A DNA stretch of 64,000 nt from NCBI GenBank assembly GCA_015062495.1, contig SUUN01000002.1, positions 71,905 through 135,904 of the forward strand, given 5' to 3'. Of this stretch, positions 40,962 through 55,242 are shown piece after piece. Source of the DNA: Alphaproteobacteria bacterium. GTDB taxonomy: Bacteria; Pseudomonadota; Alphaproteobacteria; Rs-D84. The notes under the pieces were generated by a model. That model saw only the letters and a program-made list of their open reading frames with translations, searched no databases and was not told where the DNA came from. The translations under genes and the position numbers were made by a program. Within the stretch, counting starts at the first letter, position 1; every line of letters starts with the position of its first letter.

Positions 40962-40987
40962 AAATCCGGCATCCGCCGGATTTTCTA
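40962..40987. terminator. terminator AAAATCCGGCATCCGCCGGATTTTCT (identical hairpin to 3808-3833)
   Basis: Same 21-mer hairpin as the one after pgsA. Confidence 0.7.
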
Positions 40988-41260
40988 TTCAGTGTAATAA
41001 CAATCACCTGCATATGTTCCCGAACCCGTTGTGTCACTAAAACTATTACCGGACGGTATGTAACAACTTGTAATACCACCCGTATTTTGATCCACCGTTG
41101 TTCCATATACACCACCCGACGACGGGCATCGCACACACGATGTACCACTTAAATAATACCCCGTATAACACGAATACGTCGTAGACGAAACCGCACATGT
41201 ATCTGCATACACCGACGACATGCACAACCCCACCCAAAGGGCAAATAATATCTTCTTCAT
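40985..41260 (-). CDS. small secreted cysteine-rich protein
   Basis: 91 aa. Signal peptide MKKILFALWVGLCMSSVYA. 9 Cys, Gly/Thr/Ser/Tyr-rich. Confidence 0.55.
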   Translation of the reverse strand: MKKILFALWVGLCMSSVYADTCAVSSTTYSCYTGYYLSGTSCVRCPSSGGVYGTTVDQNTGGITSCYIPSGNSFSDTTGSGTYAGDCYYTE

Positions 41261-41273
41261 ATCTTTACCCCCT

Positions 41274-41678
41274 TTACATCAAAGAAATTGCCGAACACGC
41301 CGTATTAGTGGCATTAATCAAACAACATCCTGTCCAACCTATTGACGACGAACTGTAATTAACACATTGCCACGCTTCTTCTGTTGATGTTGTAGCCTCA
41401 CACGAAGAATATTGCACCTTCGTATAGCGATGTGCAGATTCCGAATATGTTGTTTCCGCCATCCGCAGACACCGCCCACTTGCATCATTATACGTCCACC
41501 CTGTCGGACACTCCCCTTTGGTAAAGGTTTTACCATTTGTACAACAATGTGTATTCGCACACGTTGCAATACATTCCGACTTTGTTTGATTCAAAAAAAT
41601 TAACGATCCTGTCACACCAAAACAGTCATCAACAAACATTGGCAGCATACCAACACACAAAACAAAAATTTTTTTCAT
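41274..41678 (-). CDS. secreted cysteine-rich protein
   Basis: 134 aa with signal peptide and 14 Cys. Strong RBS AGGAGGA. Preceded by the conserved leader element. Confidence 0.6.
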   Translation of the reverse strand: MKKIFVLCVGMLPMFVDDCFGVTGSLIFLNQTKSECIATCANTHCCTNGKTFTKGECPTGWTYNDASGRCLRMAETTYSESAHRYTKVQYSSCEATTSTEEAWQCVNYSSSSIGWTGCCLINATNTACSAISLM

Positions 41679-41700
41679 TTCAATCCTCCTGATGTTTTAT

Positions 41701-41800
41701 AAAAAACAAAAACCACTGAAAAATCTTTCAAGTGGTTGGAGGTTCGAAACAATTATAGAGAATTGTGGGCTTATTTATATATATCACCACCCTCCAACCC
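41701..41800 (-). promoter_or_regulatory. conserved structured 5' leader element, copy 1 (long stem + terminator-like hairpin + U-tract before the RBS)
   Basis: In mRNA orientation the order is: stem GGGUUGGAGG (41799-41791) pairing with CCUCCAACC (41742-41734) around a ~48-nt loop, then hairpin CCACUUGAAAGAUUUUUCAGUGG (41735-41713), then UUUUUGUUUUUU, then AGGAGGA and AUG at 41678. Homologous to 51107-51210. Confidence 0.55.
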
Positions 41801-42006
41801 AGACGGATTGGCGGTTCAGACATATCTATAAAAAACAACACCACCCAGATAACTTTTTACCCAGTGGTGTCGAAATCTATATCTATGCCTGTATTTCTAT
41901 GTTGCACATTGCAACATCTCTATAACGGGTTTCGACACCCCGCCCACGGGAATTCCCCATCGGCACTTTGAGTATAAACGAAACCACAAATCAACGCAAT
42001 TATAAA

Positions 42007-42136
42007 TTTTGCTTCTATTTACTGGATTGTCCCACTACACTTGCGATGGCAACAAAAAGAGGCTTAAAATTTCTAGAACCTTAAAAACTCTTGTCATTGC
42101 GAGCAAACGCCAGTTTGCGTGGCAATCCAGTCTTAT
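42007..42136. repeat. direct repeat, copy 1 (~130 bp), containing a palindromic SLRxNxSLRGNPV-coding REP-like unit
   Basis: TTTTGCTTCTATTTACTGGATTG ... TTCTAGAACCTTAAAAACTCTTGTCATTGCGAGCAAACGCCAGTTTGCGTGGCAATCCAGTCTTAT. Lies just 3' of the GIY-YIG gene. Inner hairpin is GCAAAC-GCCA-GTTTGC. Confidence 0.75.
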
Positions 42137-42146
42137 GCATTCCGAC

Positions 42147-42455
42147 CTACCTGACCCAAAACATATCTTGTAAACTTAAATCTATCCAATCTGGATTTAT
42201 ACTTTCAATCAAACTTAATTTATATTTTCTTGACTGCGACTTGATATGCTTTTCACGTTCAATAGCATCATTTACATATTGAAACTCTTCCCAATATCCC
42301 AACTTATCACAACCATATCGTGCCGAAAAAGAATCTGGATTTATCTTATTTTTGTGTTCCCAAACACGTCTTGTAACATCATCCGTCATACCAGTGTACA
42401 ACGTACCATTTCTGCGATTAAACATAATATAAACATAGAATTTATATTCTTTCAT
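42147..42455 (-). CDS. GIY-YIG nuclease-superfamily small protein (UPF0213-like)
   Basis: About 102 aa from MKEYKFYVYIMFNRRNGTLYTGMTDDVTRRVWEHK (GIY...YIG-type motif with R and E). The track start at 42515 would run into the upstream repeat. Confidence 0.7.
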   Translation of the reverse strand: MKEYKFYVYIMFNRRNGTLYTGMTDDVTRRVWEHKNKINPDSFSARYGCDKLGYWEEFQYVNDAIEREKHIKSQSRKYKLSLIESINPDWIDLSLQDMFWVR

Positions 42456-42587
42456 TTTGCTTCTATTTACTGGATTGCCGCGGTCGTTAACACTCCCTCG
42501 CAATGACAAAGACACTTAATATTCTAGAACCCTAAAAACTCTTGTCATTGCGAGCAAACGCCAGTTTGTGTGGCAATCCAGTCTTAT
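42455..42587. repeat. direct repeat, copy 2 (~130 bp), immediately 5' of the GIY-YIG start
   Basis: TTTTGCTTCTATTTACTGGATTG ... TCTAGAACCCTAAAAACTCTTGTCATTGCGAGCAAACGCCAGTTTGTGTGGCAATCCAGTCTTAT. About 90% identical to copy 1 in the conserved blocks. Confidence 0.75.
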
Positions 42588-48367: not shown

Positions 48368-51088
48368 TTATTCATTATCCGGGGGATATATCAAACAACT
48401 GGTATAATTATTATATCCAAATGCGCCTGATTGTGTACATTCTATTTTTGCCTTTTTACACATATTTGCACAACGCTTAAAACCAGGCGATTTATCTTCT
48501 GTACCAAAATCACATGTGGCATCAACATAGGTATTAAATTTCCCATCCTTGTTTTTCATAACCGTATAAACCTTAATATCTTCACGCCATGTTCCGTGCG
48601 CATCATTACACGCACTTCGTGCCTTGGACAAATATTCTGAATATTTTCCACGTGTTGCAGACTGATAAATCGTTCCTTCCACTGCAGTTTGATCAAACCA
48701 CCAATCCGATTCCAACGGTCGCCACACAGTTTGTCCAGACGCCACAGATTCTACATCTGTATCTGCGAAACAATCCAATTTCATTTCCACATTTGGACAT
48801 GGCAGAGTATTATTTTCGCATCCGCCACCACGCCGCCTTGATACAAGTACGTCAACCTGAATATTCGCTGGCTTTTGTTTTGCGACAAAATAACTTTCCA
48901 ATAATTTCTGTTTAGCAAAGGCTATGTCAAACTCTTTATCAAAATCCTTGTAATGTGGAGAAACTAATTCGACTTCAAATTTACATACGCGCCCTGTTAT
49001 TTGCGACCACATTTCATCAATCTTTGCCTTGGCTACAGATGTCAATCCGTTATCACTGAAAAAATCTGCTTCTGCAATAATAACCCCATCTTGGTTTGAT
49101 GTTACCGCACCGACATTATTTAACACATCCTTGATTGCCGTATTATCCGGTATTATTTGATTGGGATTCACCATCCCCTGCACCTGCGATTCTGCTGATT
49201 GCGATTGTATATTACCAACGACGTTTGACACAGACTCCTCAGAATCTGATTCTACAACAGGTTCTGTAACAGAATTTTTTAACACAATATTTGTATGTGC
49301 ATTTTCATAATCTTTCTTGTCATATTTATTTTTACCTGAATTAATCGCCAGGTTACCAATCAATGACCCTGCCGCTCCAACAACCGCAGTTATTGCTCCT
49401 GTTTTCTTTTTTTCCGCAGTCTCATCTTTTTGTTCTTGCCACATCTTGGCGTCCTGGCTATTTGGATCAGTCAACGCCCGCGCCAACGATGCATATGCAC
49501 CACCTGTTTTCCCAATCGCTACATCATCATACAATCCAGATGTTGCCGCATTCAAAATCGGTTCAGACTCAATCCCAGGTCGCATCCCCAATGCTTCTTT
49601 GCGCACCTTTAAATCATTTGCCAGCGCAACATATTCTGCATACAGTGCAATCAAGTCATTACCACCCGGCAATTCAACATCAACATCACCACCACGCACA
49701 TTTTTGCCATTACCATAACTGCATGTAAACGTGGCCAGATATGCCCGCATTGCATTTTCCGCATCTGCATACGCATCTTGTTCCGCCGCACCTGATGCCA
49801 ACATCATACCGCCAATCCCAGTTGCACCAATACCCGCTGCCCCCAACAGTTTATTTGCATCTGATTGTTCCCTGTCTTTGGCGGATTTTGCACTATCTTT
49901 TAATTTATCAATATTGTTTTGTGATTCTTGTTGCGCTTGTAAACTATTCACCTGCGGATTTTCACCCGGGACAGCAACCACGTCATCTACAGCTGTTTCG
50001 TCATCACTAACAACGGTTGTATCCTGAACATTCGTGGGCGATGTCACACCATCGTCCGTCGTACTGGCACTGTCCCCATCTTCAACTGGCGCGGCAACCA
50101 CAGCTGTATCGGTCACGGTTTCTTGTGTTGGTGTCGACGTATTTTCCGCATCAGACTGCGCGTTGTCCTCTGTCACTGGCGCAACACATGTCAGGTCTGT
50201 TTTTTCCCCATCTATAATAGTTAACTTATATTCTGCATCCATTTTTTTTACACTTTGACAATAACTGTCCGCGACACACCACCCCTGGGACACCCCCGCA
50301 GAACTCACAACCAGATACGTCCCCGCCTTGCACTTTGTAGCCACACATTTTAGCCCAGAATTATATTTTCCCGCTGTTGCGAATTGTGGCAAATCGTTTG
50401 CGGCACAATTATCACCCGGCCCAATTGTACGCACACAACTTCTTTTATCATCCGACGGTCTATAATTCTGTTTACACTCAGAAATCGAGTTGACCCACAC
50501 CATGCGGTTTGGATTTTCCTTGTATGTACATGTTTTTGTACACGAAGCCGCGTTGGAATCAGTTATCACATTTGGCGCACATTCTTGATTTTCCAAGACT
50601 GTCCCCTCAGGCGAATCGCCACATTTTCTTTCCTGACATTTACCATCTGCAAAAAATCTATTACCGTCACAACTAGCCATCAGACACCCTCTGGGCCACG
50701 CACCATCTTCAACAAAATTCCCACCTTGAACCCTGCATCTCTGCTCTGCCCCATCTTGGTACACACAATACCGCGCGCCACTAACACTTAATGTTGTTAT
50801 TTGACTTTTCTCACACCAATTTGTTTGCTGTTTTTGCCACTCATCCGGCCAACCTTTAACACATTTATAATTATCGCCATATAATGTTTGCAACTCTGCC
50901 CCATCCGCAAATGAAAAAGTTCCTTTTCTATACACCGGATTACATTCATAACTACTACCGTTATTCAAATAAAAGAATGATTTATCATCCGATGAACTAC
51001 TGGCTGCATTCACCTGTCGCCATGGTGCCGCATCACCATATGCAGCATCTAAAATCAGACAAAAAAACAACACAAACAAACAGCGCAT
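48368..51088 (-). CDS. large secreted cysteine-rich modular protein (Cys-rich N-domain, acidic T/D/V-rich linker, glycine-zipper segments, Cys-containing C-domain)
   Basis: About 906 aa from MRCLFVLFFCLILDAAYG (track start 51136 runs into the leader hairpin). About 45 Cys in the first 330 aa. Linker TDTAVVAAPVEDGDSASTTDDGVTSPTNVQDTTVVSDDETAVDDVVAV. Gly-zipper segments GAAGIGATGIGGMMLASGAA and GAITAVVGAAGSLIGNLAI. Shares a KFNT motif with the 4131/5791 C-terminal domain. Confidence 0.7.
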   Translation of the reverse strand: MRCLFVLFFCLILDAAYGDAAPWRQVNAASSSSDDKSFFYLNNGSSYECNPVYRKGTFSFADGAELQTLYGDNYKCVKGWPDEWQKQQTNWCEKSQITTLSVSGARYCVYQDGAEQRCRVQGGNFVEDGAWPRGCLMASCDGNRFFADGKCQERKCGDSPEGTVLENQECAPNVITDSNAASCTKTCTYKENPNRMVWVNSISECKQNYRPSDDKRSCVRTIGPGDNCAANDLPQFATAGKYNSGLKCVATKCKAGTYLVVSSAGVSQGWCVADSYCQSVKKMDAEYKLTIIDGEKTDLTCVAPVTEDNAQSDAENTSTPTQETVTDTAVVAAPVEDGDSASTTDDGVTSPTNVQDTTVVSDDETAVDDVVAVPGENPQVNSLQAQQESQNNIDKLKDSAKSAKDREQSDANKLLGAAGIGATGIGGMMLASGAAEQDAYADAENAMRAYLATFTCSYGNGKNVRGGDVDVELPGGNDLIALYAEYVALANDLKVRKEALGMRPGIESEPILNAATSGLYDDVAIGKTGGAYASLARALTDPNSQDAKMWQEQKDETAEKKKTGAITAVVGAAGSLIGNLAINSGKNKYDKKDYENAHTNIVLKNSVTEPVVESDSEESVSNVVGNIQSQSAESQVQGMVNPNQIIPDNTAIKDVLNNVGAVTSNQDGVIIAEADFFSDNGLTSVAKAKIDEMWSQITGRVCKFEVELVSPHYKDFDKEFDIAFAKQKLLESYFVAKQKPANIQVDVLVSRRRGGGCENNTLPCPNVEMKLDCFADTDVESVASGQTVWRPLESDWWFDQTAVEGTIYQSATRGKYSEYLSKARSACNDAHGTWREDIKVYTVMKNKDGKFNTYVDATCDFGTEDKSPGFKRCANMCKKAKIECTQSGAFGYNNYTSCLIYPPDNE

Positions 51089-51106
51089 TAATCCCCCCGT
51101 CAACAT

Positions 51107-51210
51107 CATAATAAAAAACCACTGAAAAAACATCAAGTGGTTGGAGGTTCGTTACAACTTTTCAGGAAATTGTTCGCTTTATTCAATATATTCAAGCGAC
51201 CTCCAACCCT
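51107..51210 (-). promoter_or_regulatory. conserved structured 5' leader element, copy 2
   Basis: In mRNA orientation the order is: GGGUUGGAGGUCG (51210-51198) pairing with CGAACCUCCAACC (51151-51139) around a ~46-nt loop, then hairpin CCACUUGAUGUUUUUUCAGUGG (51140-51119), then UUUUUUAUUAUG..., then RBS GGGGGGA and AUG at 51088. Stem and hairpin are conserved with copy 1; the loop sequence is different. Confidence 0.55.
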
Positions 51211-51348
51211 TTTGGTTGGAGAGATTGCCCGCACACTCTAATTCTGCGCAGACACCTGAAAACACGGGTAACGACACCCCATCACGGCAAAGCCACCGTG
51301 ACAACTATATTATAACACACAGAAAACAAATAAGAAAGAATAAAAATA

Positions 51349-53343
51349 TTACCTGTATTTGCGCCTACAAAAACCAATCGACACAATTAAAATAATAATC
51401 ATCCATCCATTCAGTCCAATCACACGATACGGTGTAATATGTGCCCCCCATACAAATCCATCCAGCACCCCCGTCGCGCCAATCGGCAATGATGATATGA
51501 TTGCGCCATCCGCCCCAACAAACGCGCTAATGCCCGAATAATTTGCACGAATAATCGGCAACCCTGATTCAATTGCATATCGCCGCACCATATCCAGATG
51601 CTGATATGTGCCCGGCGTATTACCGAACCAATTATCATTTGTAATATTCACAATTGCATGCACATGCCCCGTATTCCCACCTGGCAACAAAGAATCTGAA
51701 AAAATAATTTCATAACAAATCGCAGGCGCAAAAACAAAATCCCCAACCGCAAGCAGTTCTGGTCCACGTCCCGGCATCAAATCAACCGGCGCAGGCAAAA
51801 ATCCCAACGGTCTATACTCGCCAAATGGCACCAGGTGTGACTTGCTATAAATCTTGTTAATATCACCACCGTCGTTCACAACAACCATAGAATTAGACAC
51901 CCCATTCCCGTCAAACGTATTTGTCCCCATAACAACGGGACGTCCAATTATTTTTACAAAATCAAATGTATCATTTGGCACAACAACAAACGGATATGTG
52001 GTTTCCGGGAACACAACCATATCATATACCCCAGGCTGCGTTGCCAAATTCATTAAATTATTCAAATTGGTTTCCGCACGCGCCAACGCTTCGGCCCGAC
52101 TGTGTGTTGCCTTTTGCAATTGGGAATTGGCAGGTTGCACAATACGAACCATTGGCCCTGTTGCATCCGCCCCAACATCTGAATATCGCATATTTTGCGC
52201 ACCAACAAACATTCCACATATGCCCAATAAAAGCATACCAATTAACACCGCCCAACATGCACGACATTTTCTGTCCCGCAAAACTTCAACCAACGCCGCT
52301 ATTACCCCCACAATAACAAACGTTAATCCCAACGCCCCCCACAACGCCATAGAATTTGCCAACATCGGCAATGGCATTGTTATATTTGCAACCGGATTCC
52401 ACGGAAATCCTGTAAACATCCATTCACGCGCCCACAGAACCAACGCCCAAACACAGGCAAACAAAATCGCACGCGCCCCACCCGATATACGCATACGCGC
52501 AATCGCAACGAACGGCCATGAAAATATCAGCGCACCCGCAATCGCCAATCCAACCACACCTGGAATTGTCCAAATTGCAAACTGTTGGGTTAATTCCGGC
52601 ACAACATAAATCGAATGCAGAACCCACCAAAAATTTGCCACGGCATACATCGCCCCAAATGGCGACACACGCAATAACGAACGCCAAAAGCCACCTATAT
52701 TTTCATTACGAACCGTCAACCAGTATGCGCCCATTATTCCAACAATCGTCCACCACCAATGGTAAAATGGTGCGAACCCAAAACTGGCAACCCCACCAAA
52801 CAGTGCGTACAGCGCATATTGCCAAAAACCATTTTCACGAATTTTTAATCGCCGAAAAAACGCAAGCACCCCACCACCTGGGCAGCAACTGGCATCATTA
52901 CACGAAACAGCGACATCATCCGCATATGGATTTTTTATCCCCATTTTTTTCAGCACCTTTATTTCCTTCATCTCCATCAGAATTGCTTCTTCATCTGTCA
53001 TATGATCGTACCCCAACAGATGAAACATACCATGCACAACCATATGCGCCACATGATCATGAAACGATATTTTTGCCTCTTTTGCTTCGCGCATTACTGT
53101 ATCAATGGAAATATAAATATCCCCCAGTAACACATCGTCCCCCAATTCAAACGACAGCACATTTGTCGCCCTGTCTACATTGCGATACGTTTTATTGATT
53201 TCATGAATTTCCGCATCATTGGTCAGTATAATCGACACTTCGGCATTTTTATATTTTGCCCCAACCACAATATTGGCGATTTTTTGAAAGTCAATTTTAT
53301 GACTATCCCAACGTTTATCATGTGCATCAATATATACTTTCAT
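51349..53343 (-). CDS. fusion ORF: endoribonuclease YbeY (N-terminal ~150 aa) joined in-frame to apolipoprotein N-acyltransferase Lnt (C-terminal ~500 aa)
   Basis: N-terminus has the YbeY motif HGMFHLLGYDH. After the linker VAVSCNDASCCPGGG comes a polytopic membrane domain and a nitrilase-like CN-hydrolase domain (ICYEIIFSD) typical of Lnt. No intervening stop codon. The usual ybeY-corC-lnt arrangement lacks corC here. Confidence 0.75.
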   Translation of the reverse strand: MKVYIDAHDKRWDSHKIDFQKIANIVVGAKYKNAEVSIILTNDAEIHEINKTYRNVDRATNVLSFELGDDVLLGDIYISIDTVMREAKEAKISFHDHVAHMVVHGMFHLLGYDHMTDEEAILMEMKEIKVLKKMGIKNPYADDVAVSCNDASCCPGGGVLAFFRRLKIRENGFWQYALYALFGGVASFGFAPFYHWWWTIVGIMGAYWLTVRNENIGGFWRSLLRVSPFGAMYAVANFWWVLHSIYVVPELTQQFAIWTIPGVVGLAIAGALIFSWPFVAIARMRISGGARAILFACVWALVLWAREWMFTGFPWNPVANITMPLPMLANSMALWGALGLTFVIVGVIAALVEVLRDRKCRACWAVLIGMLLLGICGMFVGAQNMRYSDVGADATGPMVRIVQPANSQLQKATHSRAEALARAETNLNNLMNLATQPGVYDMVVFPETTYPFVVVPNDTFDFVKIIGRPVVMGTNTFDGNGVSNSMVVVNDGGDINKIYSKSHLVPFGEYRPLGFLPAPVDLMPGRGPELLAVGDFVFAPAICYEIIFSDSLLPGGNTGHVHAIVNITNDNWFGNTPGTYQHLDMVRRYAIESGLPIIRANYSGISAFVGADGAIISSLPIGATGVLDGFVWGAHITPYRVIGLNGWMIIILIVSIGFCRRKYR

Positions 53344-53370: not shown

Positions 53371-55242
53371 TTATGCCATATTTCCTTTGAATTCTTGCCC
53401 ATACAACAGCAAATCTTTCTTTGCATTTTTCTGGTGAATCTGTTTTATCCCAGAATGAAAGGCCACTTTTTTATTACCACCTTGCTTGATTTTTTCAGAC
53501 ACACGTGTGATATCATTTTGCACACGCCTGTTGCCATTTGCCAATGCTAATTTATAGTTCGCCAATGCCTTGTCTAATTTCCCCAGTTGTTCGTACGCAA
53601 ATCCCGCGTTGTATTGCGCTGCACCATATTGTGATTTATCACCGATACGCTGGACCACCTCGCGCGATTGGGCGATTGCTTCGTTATACATCCCCAGCTT
53701 ATTATAGGTTGCCGCCAAATCATTACGCAGCAATGCATTATCCGGATATTTTGCAATCATATCCTGATATTTTTCGGCCGCCCCACGATAATCCCCGGCG
53801 CGATACGCACCCACCGCATCGGCATATAATTCATCATATCCGATAACATATGTTTTAACCTCGACCTGCTCTGCTTCTTTTTTCTGTTTATCAGACCGCA
53901 ACACATTATCCCAAACACTTAGTGCACCTATTTCACACTTTCCAATTGCACACTGTTGTGCAATATCGACCGGCAACCAATCCGCCGCTGTTTTCCAGTG
54001 TGCCAACGATTCCCCATGTTTATTAACCGGATTTTCCAACCATTTATAGAAACGTGTCAACGTTTCATCATTTGCCACACGTTTGCCATTTTTTTCAACG
54101 AACCAGTTTTCACGTTTATCACCAATAATCTGATAAAACTCGTACATTCCGCCAATTGGGATTTTCAAGAAAACCTCAGGCTTAATATTTCCCTTCATTA
54201 CCTGGGCTTCTAACCATCTGCGCCATTTCAGTCCATTACCCCCCTTTAAAAAGTTCCCCAAACTATTGCCTATTTCATCCTTGGGCGCGCCATTCAGCCA
54301 CGCATCGCCAACGGACGTCATATGTTCCACCGGATACTTTGCAAACACATCACGCACCATTTCATTGGTTATTGCATTACCATATTGTTCATGCAGTTTG
54401 TCCAATTCTGCAAAACGTTCTTCGTATTTCCGATTCCTTTTTCCGTCTACCTTGGGTTCTTCTATTAAATCAGTACCAACATTATATGTTGCCGCCGACA
54501 ATGCAATTAATTCCCCCGCCCGATTAATATCAACGTTATCAAACACCACATCATAGCAATACAACCGAAACAGTGTTTCATTTTCCATAATATGCCAACA
54601 CGCTAATTCATAGGCCGCCTGGGTGGAAATTGGCGGTGTATTTTTATTAACACGCGTTCCGTCCTTTAAAACAGTTGAACCAAATCCAATTGTCCATATT
54701 CCACGTCCATCCAGATACGGCGCATGCATACCATTTGCATCAACATTAACCCCTTCCTTGGCAATCAGGTCCGCAACCAGATACGGCAACGCCCCCCGCA
54801 TTTTATCCAGATATTCTGCATACGTTCCACGCTTTGCGCGCTCAGCCTCGCGTTCAATTTTTACCTGATTAACCAAATCAGAAATTTCAACCCCCGCCTT
54901 GATTCCACCCGCAATAGATGCAATCAGCATATAATAAATCATATGCGACGACAGGTTTGGATGCCGTTTCATAAACTCGTGTAATTTTTTATTTTCGCCT
55001 TTTTTATTTTTTCCAACACGCATATCACGCAGTGCCTTTTCCCCCGCACGCAACGCATGATTATCCAACGTAATATATTTGGTTGCCCAGAATAAAAATT
55101 GTGCCAACCCCGTCATGGTCATCCCTGCACCTTTTGCAACCTTGCCATACCATTTATCGGGTTGTATACGCTTGATTTCCTGGGTTGCGCGCCCAAACGC
55201 TCTGTGTGGAAAATTAACAATATTACGGAATTTTTCTGACAT
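53371..55242 (-). CDS. membrane-anchored GH24 (T4/lambda-type) lysozyme-domain protein with C-terminal TPR repeats
   Basis: 623 aa. Predicted transmembrane helix (MIYYMLIASIAGGIKAG). Lysozyme motif LIAKEGVNVDANGMHAPYLDGRGIWTIGFGST with an E...D...T catalytic-triad pattern. C-terminal TPR-like AEKYQDMIAKYPDNALL...YNKLGMYNEAIA...YEQLGKLDKALANY. Confidence 0.65.
   Translation of the reverse strand: MSEKFRNIVNFPHRAFGRATQEIKRIQPDKWYGKVAKGAGMTMTGLAQFLFWATKYITLDNHALRAGEKALRDMRVGKNKKGENKKLHEFMKRHPNLSSHMIYYMLIASIAGGIKAGVEISDLVNQVKIEREAERAKRGTYAEYLDKMRGALPYLVADLIAKEGVNVDANGMHAPYLDGRGIWTIGFGSTVLKDGTRVNKNTPPISTQAAYELACWHIMENETLFRLYCYDVVFDNVDINRAGELIALSAATYNVGTDLIEEPKVDGKRNRKYEERFAELDKLHEQYGNAITNEMVRDVFAKYPVEHMTSVGDAWLNGAPKDEIGNSLGNFLKGGNGLKWRRWLEAQVMKGNIKPEVFLKIPIGGMYEFYQIIGDKRENWFVEKNGKRVANDETLTRFYKWLENPVNKHGESLAHWKTAADWLPVDIAQQCAIGKCEIGALSVWDNVLRSDKQKKEAEQVEVKTYVIGYDELYADAVGAYRAGDYRGAAEKYQDMIAKYPDNALLRNDLAATYNKLGMYNEAIAQSREVVQRIGDKSQYGAAQYNAGFAYEQLGKLDKALANYKLALANGNRRVQNDITRVSEKIKQGGNKKVAFHSGIKQIHQKNAKKDLLLYGQEFKGNMA

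Follow-up and report, generated by a model that had tools for sequence, protein, structure and literature searches.

A putative transcription-attenuation leader RNA family upstream of secreted-protein and small regulator genes in the lineage Rs-D84/Candidatus Enterousia

Our analyses of a 64,000-nucleotide stretch of DNA from an alphaproteobacterium of the lineage Rs-D84 (contig SUUN01000002.1 of assembly GCA_015062495.1; hereafter the window) suggest, with a probability of roughly 0.62, that the segment at 51107-51210 on the minus strand is part of a cis-acting transcription-attenuation leader, which is a candidate riboswitch or protein-responsive switch. On sequence comparison, this leader belongs to a new RNA family of terminator/antiterminator leaders, a kind that is already known, and the family is unusual in its two interlocking long-range helices, its sequence-invariant switch segments and its promoter-bearing tandem units. 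Read 5' to 3' on the minus strand (51210-51107), the segment runs from GGGUUGGAGG to CCUCCAACCACUUGAUGUUUUUUCAGUGGUUUUUUAUUAUGAUG and consists of GGGUUGGAGG-UCGCUUGAAUAUAUUGAAUAAAGCGA-ACAAUUUCCUGAAAAGUUG-UAACGA-ACCUCCAACC-ACUUGAUGUUUUUUCAGUGG-UUUUUUAUUAUGAUG.

The first-pass annotation had described this segment as the second copy of a structured leader, and the duplication is real. A blastn comparison of the intergenic region with the window matches positions 41708-41800 on the minus strand (77% identity over 97 nt, E 3e-12), the 18-mer GAACCTCCAACCACTTGA is found in the window only at 41728-41745 and 51133-51150 (chance expectation 0.02), and a covariance model identifies exactly two significant units in the window (copy 1, 146 bits; copy 2, 136 bits), with which a motif scan of the window is consistent. 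The box drawn at 51107-51210 encloses genuine leader sequence but only its 3' half, the element being about twice as long. Conservation among the aligned loci of the family reaches ~100 nt further 5' than this box, up to a -35/-10 promoter, and copy 2 extends over ~210 bases from the promoter (~51317) to the U-run at 51113, its gene lying on the minus strand. Because the box lacked the 5' half (viz. the promoter, P0, P1, the long-range helices and S1), the three-segment switch was missed. The parts of copy 2 are as follows.

51309-51317 (-): promoter with extended -10 TGtTATAAT (sequence and family comparison)
51281-51302 (-): P0, 5'-terminal hairpin GUCACGGUGGCUUUGCCGUGAU; compensatory changes at 8/8 pairs, 92-97% of cells paired
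51266-51280 (-): P1 hairpin GGGG-UGUCGUUA-CCC; stem covaries (GGAG:CUCC, CAGG:CCUG)
51268-51274 (-): PK1 5' strand, the P1 loop UCGUUAC; compensatory pairs 5/6 and 6/6
51255-51262 (-): J1/2 UUUUCAGG, the PK2 5' strand; partner CCUGAAAA at 51159-51166 (duplex energies)
51226-51254 (-): P2, variable hairpin (MFE fold, alignments); a GNRA cap is frequent in other units
51214-51221 (-): S1 CUCCAACC, which pairs with S2 to form hairpin P3 (putative anti-antiterminator); 96% of cells paired
51200-51208 (-): S2 GGUUGGAGG, the partner common to S1 and S3
51174-51199 (-): P4, stem UCGCUU/AAGCGA with conserved motif GAAUAUAUUGAAUA (alignments); stem covaries
51155-51172 (-): P5 hairpin; 100% paired, one pair split AU 25 / UA 22
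51159-51166 (-): PK2 3' strand, the P5 loop with two further nt from the 3' arm (PK2 duplex tests)
51149-51155 (-): PK1 3' strand GUAACGA, complementary to the P1 loop; one base 5' of S3
51139-51147 (-): S3 CCUCCAACC; 9 bp with S2 (putative antiterminator), last four bases open the terminator stem
51113-51142 (-): intrinsic terminator, hairpin AACCACUUGAUG..UUCAGUGGUU at 51117-51142 (-8.2 kcal/mol) plus U6 at 51113-51118
51092-51098 (-): GGGGGGA, the Shine-Dalgarno (SD) sequence for the 906-aa gene; its positional equivalent in other units is GGGGG or AGGAGG

Copy 1 has its parts in the same order and carries a ~90 nt insertion in the P2 region.

41708-41966 (-): copy 1 leader (146 bits)
41971-41999 (-): promoter, -35 TTGCGT, 17-nt spacer, -10 TATACT (sequence)
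41942-41964 (-): P0
41927-41941 (-): P1
41918-41925 (-): J1/2
41817-41917 (-): expanded P2 region
41805-41811 (-): S1
41791-41799 (-): S2
41765-41790 (-): P4
41750-41765 (-): P5
41744-41750 (-): PK1 3' strand
41734-41742 (-): S3
41711-41737 (-): terminator (-9.7 kcal/mol)

The ~90-nt insertion in the P2 region defines a copy-1 subtype (window 41830-41871 (-); L007, L018, L024, L032) and carries a second terminator-like hairpin (GACACCAC..GUGGUGU, then UUGUUUUUU) with CAGGCAUAGAUAU/AUAGAUAUGUCUG paired at its flanks, and might act as a further site of premature termination within the leader. In three other units of the family, an additional hairpin is inserted at the centre of the P4 motif. A simple terminator scanner also labels the P1 hairpin (51266-51279 (-); GGGUGUCGUUACCC then GUGUUUUCAG) as terminator-like.

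The family was assembled from two independent collections. One genome per species, scanned with an exact pattern, yielded 31 true loci, nearly all of them labelled as Candidatus Enterousia or uncultured Alphaproteobacteria and several genomes carrying more than one, in which a covariance model of 183 positions recognises 48 units. A scan of metagenomes with a pattern restricted to S2 and the P4 motif, which thus places no selection on the 3' end, returned at least 120 stretches and from them at least 96 more units. The set analysed here comprises at least 140 distinct units from Candidatus Enterousia/Rs-D84 genomes and gut metagenomes. Searches of the whole window with the 4227 models of Rfam 15 at gathering thresholds returned only two tRNAs, and in E-value mode (up to E 10) the best match within 51050-51360 scored 17.9 bits against a cut-off of 40.5 bits, on the wrong strand. 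Literature text searches with lineage names and motif strings found no paper on this leader RNA, and a blastn search of a phage database with the leader gave no match. A mobile or MITE-like repeat was also considered and rejected, as the units have no terminal repeats, are always oriented from promoter to gene, and show selection at the RNA level.

Support for the folded structure is provided by base pairing and covariation in both collections. In 33 units aligned with MAFFT, 93.2% of cells are paired, compared with 37-51% when the partners are slid; the corresponding values for the covariance-model alignments (47 genome units and 84 distinct metagenome units) are 93-94% and 35-51%, and the observed covariation was reached in 0 of 500 shuffles. 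Alignments fitted by a covariance model are biased towards the modelled structure, and PK1, PK2 and S2:S3 lie outside the model. P0, P1, P4, P5, PK1 and PK2 all covary in the two independently collected sets. PK1, which joins the P1 loop to the 6-7 nt before S3, is 92-98% paired, with double changes at 5/6 or 6/6 pairs, and its variants include UCGUUAC/GUAACGA, UAGAAAC/GUUUCUA, UCAAGAC/GUCUUGA and UAAGUAC/GUACUUA. PK2, in which the P5 loop pairs with the 8-9 nt that follow P1, was tested independently of the column alignment: the mean energy of the cognate duplex is -8.85 kcal/mol as against -1.73 for non-cognate pairs in the genome set (cognate best in 37/47) and -8.05 as against -1.93 kcal/mol in the metagenome set (cognate best in 54/82). 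Modelled together, PK1 and PK2 would form an almost continuous ~16-bp rod that closes a domain containing P2, P3 and P4. They are in partial competition with P1 and P5, local stems that themselves covary. An extension of PK1 by GGGG:CCUC, present in the MFE fold and possible in most units, was not adopted and is left as an alternative, because the variants retain the local P1 stem (GGAG:CUCC, CAGG:CCUG).

At the centre of the element is S2, which has two complementary partners: S1, with 8 bp in hairpin P3, and S3, with 9 bp. Pairing is 96% for S1:S2, where most changes create wobbles in S1, and 98% for S2:S3. The ninth base pair of S2:S3 has no counterpart in S1:S2; it is GC in 40, UA in 3 and AU in 1 of the genome units and GC in 60, UA in 10 and AU in 2 of the metagenome units, so that G-C is replaced by U-A or A-U in 4 and 12 sequences, respectively. 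In one divergent unit (L026:99-278), S1, S2 and S3 have all been replaced concordantly (CCAGUUCC / GGGACUGGA / UCCAGUCCC) and the terminator arm has changed to match. Since the cores of S1, S2 and S3 are nearly invariant, the support for S2:S3 comes from this single terminal pair together with the few units that diverge; the similarity of S1 and S3 could alternatively mean that they are two copies of a protein-binding site.

A hairpin followed by a T-run occupies the terminator position in 119 of the 140 units, and the terminator stems covary, their distal pairs included. In 113 of these 119 units the 5' arm of the terminator begins inside S3, and the overlap persists despite quite different stems (ACCACUUGA.., ACCGCC.., ACCACCUG.., ACCGUCAAU..). 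The copy 2 hairpin, whose stem is of 7+3 bp, has the form of an intrinsic terminator, i.e. a G+C-containing hairpin directly before a U-run. The simple scanner, which applies a stricter rule, made no call at either terminator of the window, in copy 2 because of a stem mismatch and a long loop; hence the terminator status of 51117-51142 is based on the family comparison (119/140 units, stem covariation). As expected of an attenuator, the element contains a segment with alternative pairings, either with the 3' arm of the terminator or with an upstream antiterminator strand. The maintenance of both mutually exclusive pairings of S2, concordant changes included, argues against the possibility that the units are a promoter with a stabilising or insulating leader and a fixed partial terminator, giving low expression with no signal-dependent switching. 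Such an arrangement would agree with the highly conserved core and with terminators that are weak to moderate across the units (median -10.1 kcal/mol). However, it would not require the two S2 pairings, nor an elaborate long-range architecture kept over 140 units, nor arrays that precede regulator genes, and we consider this explanation decidedly doubtful.

In nested-fold calculations for copy 2, the OFF structure (P3, rod and terminator) is the MFE at -77.0 kcal/mol, compared with -61.5 kcal/mol when S2:S3 is enforced, and the two energies in copy 1 are -110.3 and -91.8 kcal/mol; the ON energies were calculated without the long-range helices, and the true gap between OFF and ON is thus smaller. 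In these models termination looks like the default state, and since OFF is so strongly favoured, we infer switching rather than observe it.

The alternative pairings could also be governed by a translating ribosome. In this type of attenuation, translation would begin after the internal GGAGG of S2 (in copy 2, MNILNKANNFLKSCNEPPTT followed by a stop) and the terminator would be masked by a ribosome that has reached the stop codon. An open frame, ...EPPTT-UGA, that ends in the terminator arm is indeed shared by copies 1 and 2 and by L003, and a single frame is open through the P4 motif, but a start codon within 12 nt of S2 is absent from at least 35 of the 140 units, the reading frames vary from 3 to 79 codons in different frames and stop anywhere between -90 and +187 as counted from S3, UAA stands immediately before CCUCC in many units, the spacing from SD to start is just 1-6 nt, and the stems covary as RNA and not as codons. 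With start, frame, length and stop position all unconserved over the 140 units, leader-peptide attenuation was rejected as highly improbable. The first-pass annotation's view that the leader is untranslated agrees with these results, as no ORF is conserved across the element in the 140 units and the helices covary at the RNA level.

Each unit of the family appears to be transcribed from a promoter of its own. A -10 element of the form TAnnnT is present in 126 of 138 units (exactly TATAAT in 56) and ends 4-5 nt before the first position of the model in 114 units; TTGnnn is found in 86 units and a TG extension in 46. The family thus displays the characteristics of sigma-70 promoters, viz. -35 and -10 elements spaced by 16-18 nt at a fixed distance from the 5' structure. 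In copy 2 the -35 element is weak (TTTCTT, 51332-51337), a promoter scanner made no call there, and the promoter overlaps the 3' flank of ybeY-lnt, within ~30 nt after its stop codon (51349-51351). Two other promoter candidates for the downstream gene, both embedded in the leader, were rejected: TTGATG-17-TATTAT at 51136-51108, of which one was found against 0.9 expected by chance and which is unconserved elsewhere, and a TATAAT in the P5 loop of copy 1, which is likewise unconserved and covaries as part of PK2. Units within arrays have their own promoter and terminator too, and the gaps between them are of ~36 nt, which is exactly one promoter. Arrays of 2-4 units precede genes for small XRE-type regulators in L012, L016, L026, L031, L052, L055 and L087.

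In 103 units the next feature on the same strand is an SD sequence with an ORF (40 aa or longer), separated from the end of the unit by a median of 25 nt; a further 18 are followed by another unit, 8 lie at the end of a contig and 11 gave no call, about half of these being heuristic misses. Apparent orphans number ~5 (L048, L101/L103, L102, L110). For array-terminal units, ~90% have an SD sequence and a start codon on the same strand within tens of nucleotides, which leaves no room for a second promoter, and the terminator therefore sits between each gene and its sole plausible promoter. This arrangement also weighs against the suggestion that the units are free-standing small RNA genes that act in trans (as a regulator, a sponge or a ribonucleoprotein component), with downstream expression arising from leaky termination. 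The promoter at a fixed distance and the terminator of every unit, including those in arrays with ~36-nt gaps, are what small RNA genes would have, as are tandem arrays of 2-4 units, a few orphans without a co-directional gene, and a terminated OFF fold that is the MFE. On the other hand, a pure small RNA gene accounts poorly for units placed directly before an SD sequence and start codon where a second promoter is unable to fit, and for the S3/terminator overlap combined with S2:S3 covariation, and the CU-rich segments are paired rather than exposed in the terminated fold. Free-standing small RNA genes are thus an unlikely explanation. Our conclusion is that the units would act as cis attenuators that additionally release an abundant short RNA, for which a role in trans is possible.

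The genes found downstream of the two copies in the window are as follows.

48368-51088 (-): CDS, as revised, for the secreted Cys-rich protein of 906 aa; start ATG 51088-51086, signal peptide MRCLFVLFFCLILDAAYG
40985-41678 (-): two-gene operon after copy 1, secreted Cys-rich proteins of 134 aa (41274-41678) and 91 aa (40985-41260)

The mechanically called ORF of the larger gene (a 922-aa frame) starts at TTG 51136-51134, the UUG of ACUUGAUG. The first-pass annotation had noted that this codon lies inside a terminator-like hairpin and had proposed ATG 51088, with its signal peptide and ribosome-binding site GGGGGGA, in its place. The TTG is indeed found within the terminator hairpin 51117-51142, in the loop-side part of its 5' arm. 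From ATG 51088 the protein begins MR-CLFVLFFCLIL-DAAYG/D (MRCLFVLFFCLILDAAYG/D), a Sec-type layout in which a basic n-region precedes a hydrophobic h-region and positions -3 and -1 carry small residues, as judged by rule-of-thumb inspection. Orthologous start codons, whose comparison had been suggested along with the proposed start, were called at the equivalent Met in five orthologues, these starts being gene-caller predictions rather than peptide evidence: the close strain (L001/L002), in which the leader is 100% identical, is called from MRCLF, and the more distant P0002, P0003, P0004 and P0012 are called from the equivalent Met, with a basic residue and a hydrophobic signal peptide next. 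In L003 (GCA_054298855.1), where the protein is 53% and the leader ~90% identical, the TTG and the ATG lie 49 nt apart, which puts the TTG out of frame (frame +1), and the ATGATG found at 51109 in the window is missing. That the ORF begins at TTG 51136 or ATG 51109, making the hairpin region coding, is consistent with a frame that is open from 51136 in the window genome. Against this, the leader is conserved in L003 despite the frame change and the missing ATGATG, neither codon has an SD sequence upstream, the extension MMFFQWFFIMMLTGGL would bury the signal peptide, and the equivalent sequence upstream of the 134-aa gene is clearly non-coding; an N-terminal extension of this kind is thus exceedingly unlikely. 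On the basis of the orthologue starts, the frame in L003, and the SD sequence and signal peptide, ATG 51088 is accepted; these sequence comparisons support it as the translation start of the 906-aa gene, with the whole leader untranslated. The gene is corrected accordingly to 906 aa with a signal peptide, in place of 922 aa.

The SD sequence of the copy-1 operon is AGGAGG (41685-41690), and its 91-aa protein is a relative of the 134-aa protein. The C-terminus of the 91-aa protein (40985-41260 (-); ..GITSCYIPSGNSFSDTTGSGTYAGDCYYTE) is a ~45-aa Cys-rich module that also closes otherwise different secreted proteins in L004, L007, L017, L024 and L036; it gave no match to Pfam and may be a sorting or anchoring domain. 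A 94%-identical strain variant of the 906-aa window protein has 607 aa and a different, short C-terminus (..DDEKCDTGYEWSADKQKCVKKK), and the C-terminal third of the window protein (~300 aa; 48368-49300 (-)) resembles that of P0005-P0007, and not that of P0001, P0002 and P0003. From their sequences, the two length variants suggest that this surface protein has undergone recombination or a domain exchange.

Several neighbouring features were also observed. Upstream of copy 2, a single 664-aa ORF (51349-53343 (-)) carries an N-terminal YbeY endoribonuclease domain fused to an apolipoprotein N-acyltransferase (LNT_N and CN_hydrolase), a fusion that is also conserved in the close strain L001. A 623-aa protein with a phage-type lysozyme domain and C-terminal TPR repeats (53371-55242 (-)) adjoins ybeY-lnt here and in L001 and L002. 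The motif ..G(G/A)C(A/G)ATCCAGT.. is conserved 60-100 nt upstream of copy-1-type units and of the first units of several arrays (window 42021-42033 (-); upstream of first units in L007, L011, L012, L024, L026 and L032); in the window it comes after a GIY-YIG nuclease-like ORF (42147-42515 (-)), and a repeat family typical of GIY-YIG flanks (..gctcgcaatgac..) is present as well. In L009 (2740-2837), L086 and L105, a conserved AAUUCCCCUCUGG..hairpin, which may be a further structured element, lies between the unit and the gene or next unit.

Across the family, the leader accompanies genes of more than one kind. It is retained with the orthologous gene despite a changed upstream neighbour (window versus L003), and near-identical leaders stand before unrelated genes, e.g. 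L025 versus the window. The downstream proteins comprise 59 that look secreted (with a signal peptide), both window genes being of this kind, and 44 that are non-secreted. Many of the secreted set are Cys-rich, some are beta-barrel-like and some share the C-terminal CYIPxGxxFSDxTGxGxY..C. The non-secreted proteins are mostly of 50-120 aa, 4 of 10 sampled match Pfam HTH_3 or HTH_31, and by sequence this set is mostly made up of small XRE-type regulators. The earlier suggestion of a portable regulatory cassette for secreted Cys-rich proteins is thus supported and also broadened, for the genes downstream are unrelated and include XRE-type regulators besides secreted proteins. The downstream gene set of the 140 units showed no metabolic theme that points to a ligand.

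The leader family shares features with several known systems. The four-segment attenuators of trp and pyrBI have the same exclusive pairings (1:2, 2:3 and 3:4), with a 3:4 terminator between promoter and gene, whereas the present family has no conserved leader peptide and builds a large pseudoknotted domain around the switch. Terminator riboswitches with pseudoknotted aptamers (viz. c-di-GMP-I/II, ZTP, SAM-II/V and preQ1) are alike in their covarying structured 5' leaders, long-range pairings, coupling to a terminator and tandem occurrence, and the c-di-GMP classes often control surface or secreted proteins. The leader family differs from them in having sequence-conserved switch segments, an own promoter for each tandem unit and no Rfam 15 match; it has the conserved, covarying structured domain upstream of an expression platform that is seen in riboswitches, on which structural basis it is a candidate only. 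T-box leaders are similarly long and structured, with antiterminator/terminator competition and occasional tandem arrangement, but the present leaders lack an Rfam T-box match, a specifier loop and a T-box sequence, and their downstream genes are not aminoacyl-tRNA related. The alpha-r14 or 'cuckoo' family (CcsR1-4) consists of short two-hairpin alphaproteobacterial RNAs that expose a CU-rich anti-SD motif in their loops. It resembles the leader family in its occurrence in Alphaproteobacteria, tandem arrays, CCUCC-containing motifs and intrinsic terminators; in contrast, the motifs of the leader family are paired switch segments in a 170-260-nt fold, the units abut gene starts and there is no Rfam match. 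In type III toxin-antitoxin systems (ToxIN), a promoter is followed by ~36-nt RNA repeats that are processed by the toxin, a terminator and a gene expressed by read-through, a layout that is comparable to the one described here, except that the leader units are of at least 170 nt with promoters of their own, and diverse secreted proteins or HTH regulators lie downstream.

The attenuation mechanism that we propose would operate in the following manner. By sequence and comparison, a sigma-70 promoter lies 4-7 nt upstream of P0 and the RNA folds into P1, P2, P3 (S1:S2), P4 and P5, with PK1 and PK2 tying the 5' to the 3' module. Two fates are open to S3 (CCUCCAACC), which can either base-pair with S2 (GGUUGGAGG) or contribute its final four bases to the terminator. 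In the presumed default OFF state, S1:S2 would form first, the rod would close, the terminator would form and a short RNA of ~190-260 nt would be released. An effector, which might be a small ligand bound in the pseudoknotted core or a sequence-specific RNA-binding factor, would free S2 from S1 or cover the CUCCAACC segments, and in the ON state S2:S3 (or the effector on S3) would block the terminator and allow RNA polymerase to enter the gene. The arrays of 2-4 units before small XRE regulator genes would presumably steepen the response. A broader and more tentative reading, which we hold to be possible but rather less than probable, is that the units represent a new, riboswitch-like class of ligand- or factor-sensing RNA, distinguished by its interlocked pair of long-range helices and serving as a global switch for the secretome and a set of small XRE regulators in Rs-D84/Candidatus Enterousia; if this reading is true, a single signal, which may come from a host or partner, would elicit an ultrasensitive response through the tandem units of promoter plus switch.

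These results describe an abundant and strongly covarying RNA family without description in databases or in the searchable literature, in a lineage that is uncultured, lives in the gut, and has a reduced genome and an almost unknown biology (PMC12306168). Enterousia, of the order Rs-D84, lacks the TCA cycle as well as respiration and has few transporters, its genomes being of <1 Mb (PMC12306168). The lineage is probably dependent on a host or partner, and the family appears to gate its surface and secreted proteins together with many of its small transcription regulators. The family would add to the catalogue of RNA regulation an architecture of promoter-bearing tandem units with a sequence-conserved three-segment switch, and its effector, if found, would reveal which signal governs the way in which these bacteria present themselves to host or partner cells.
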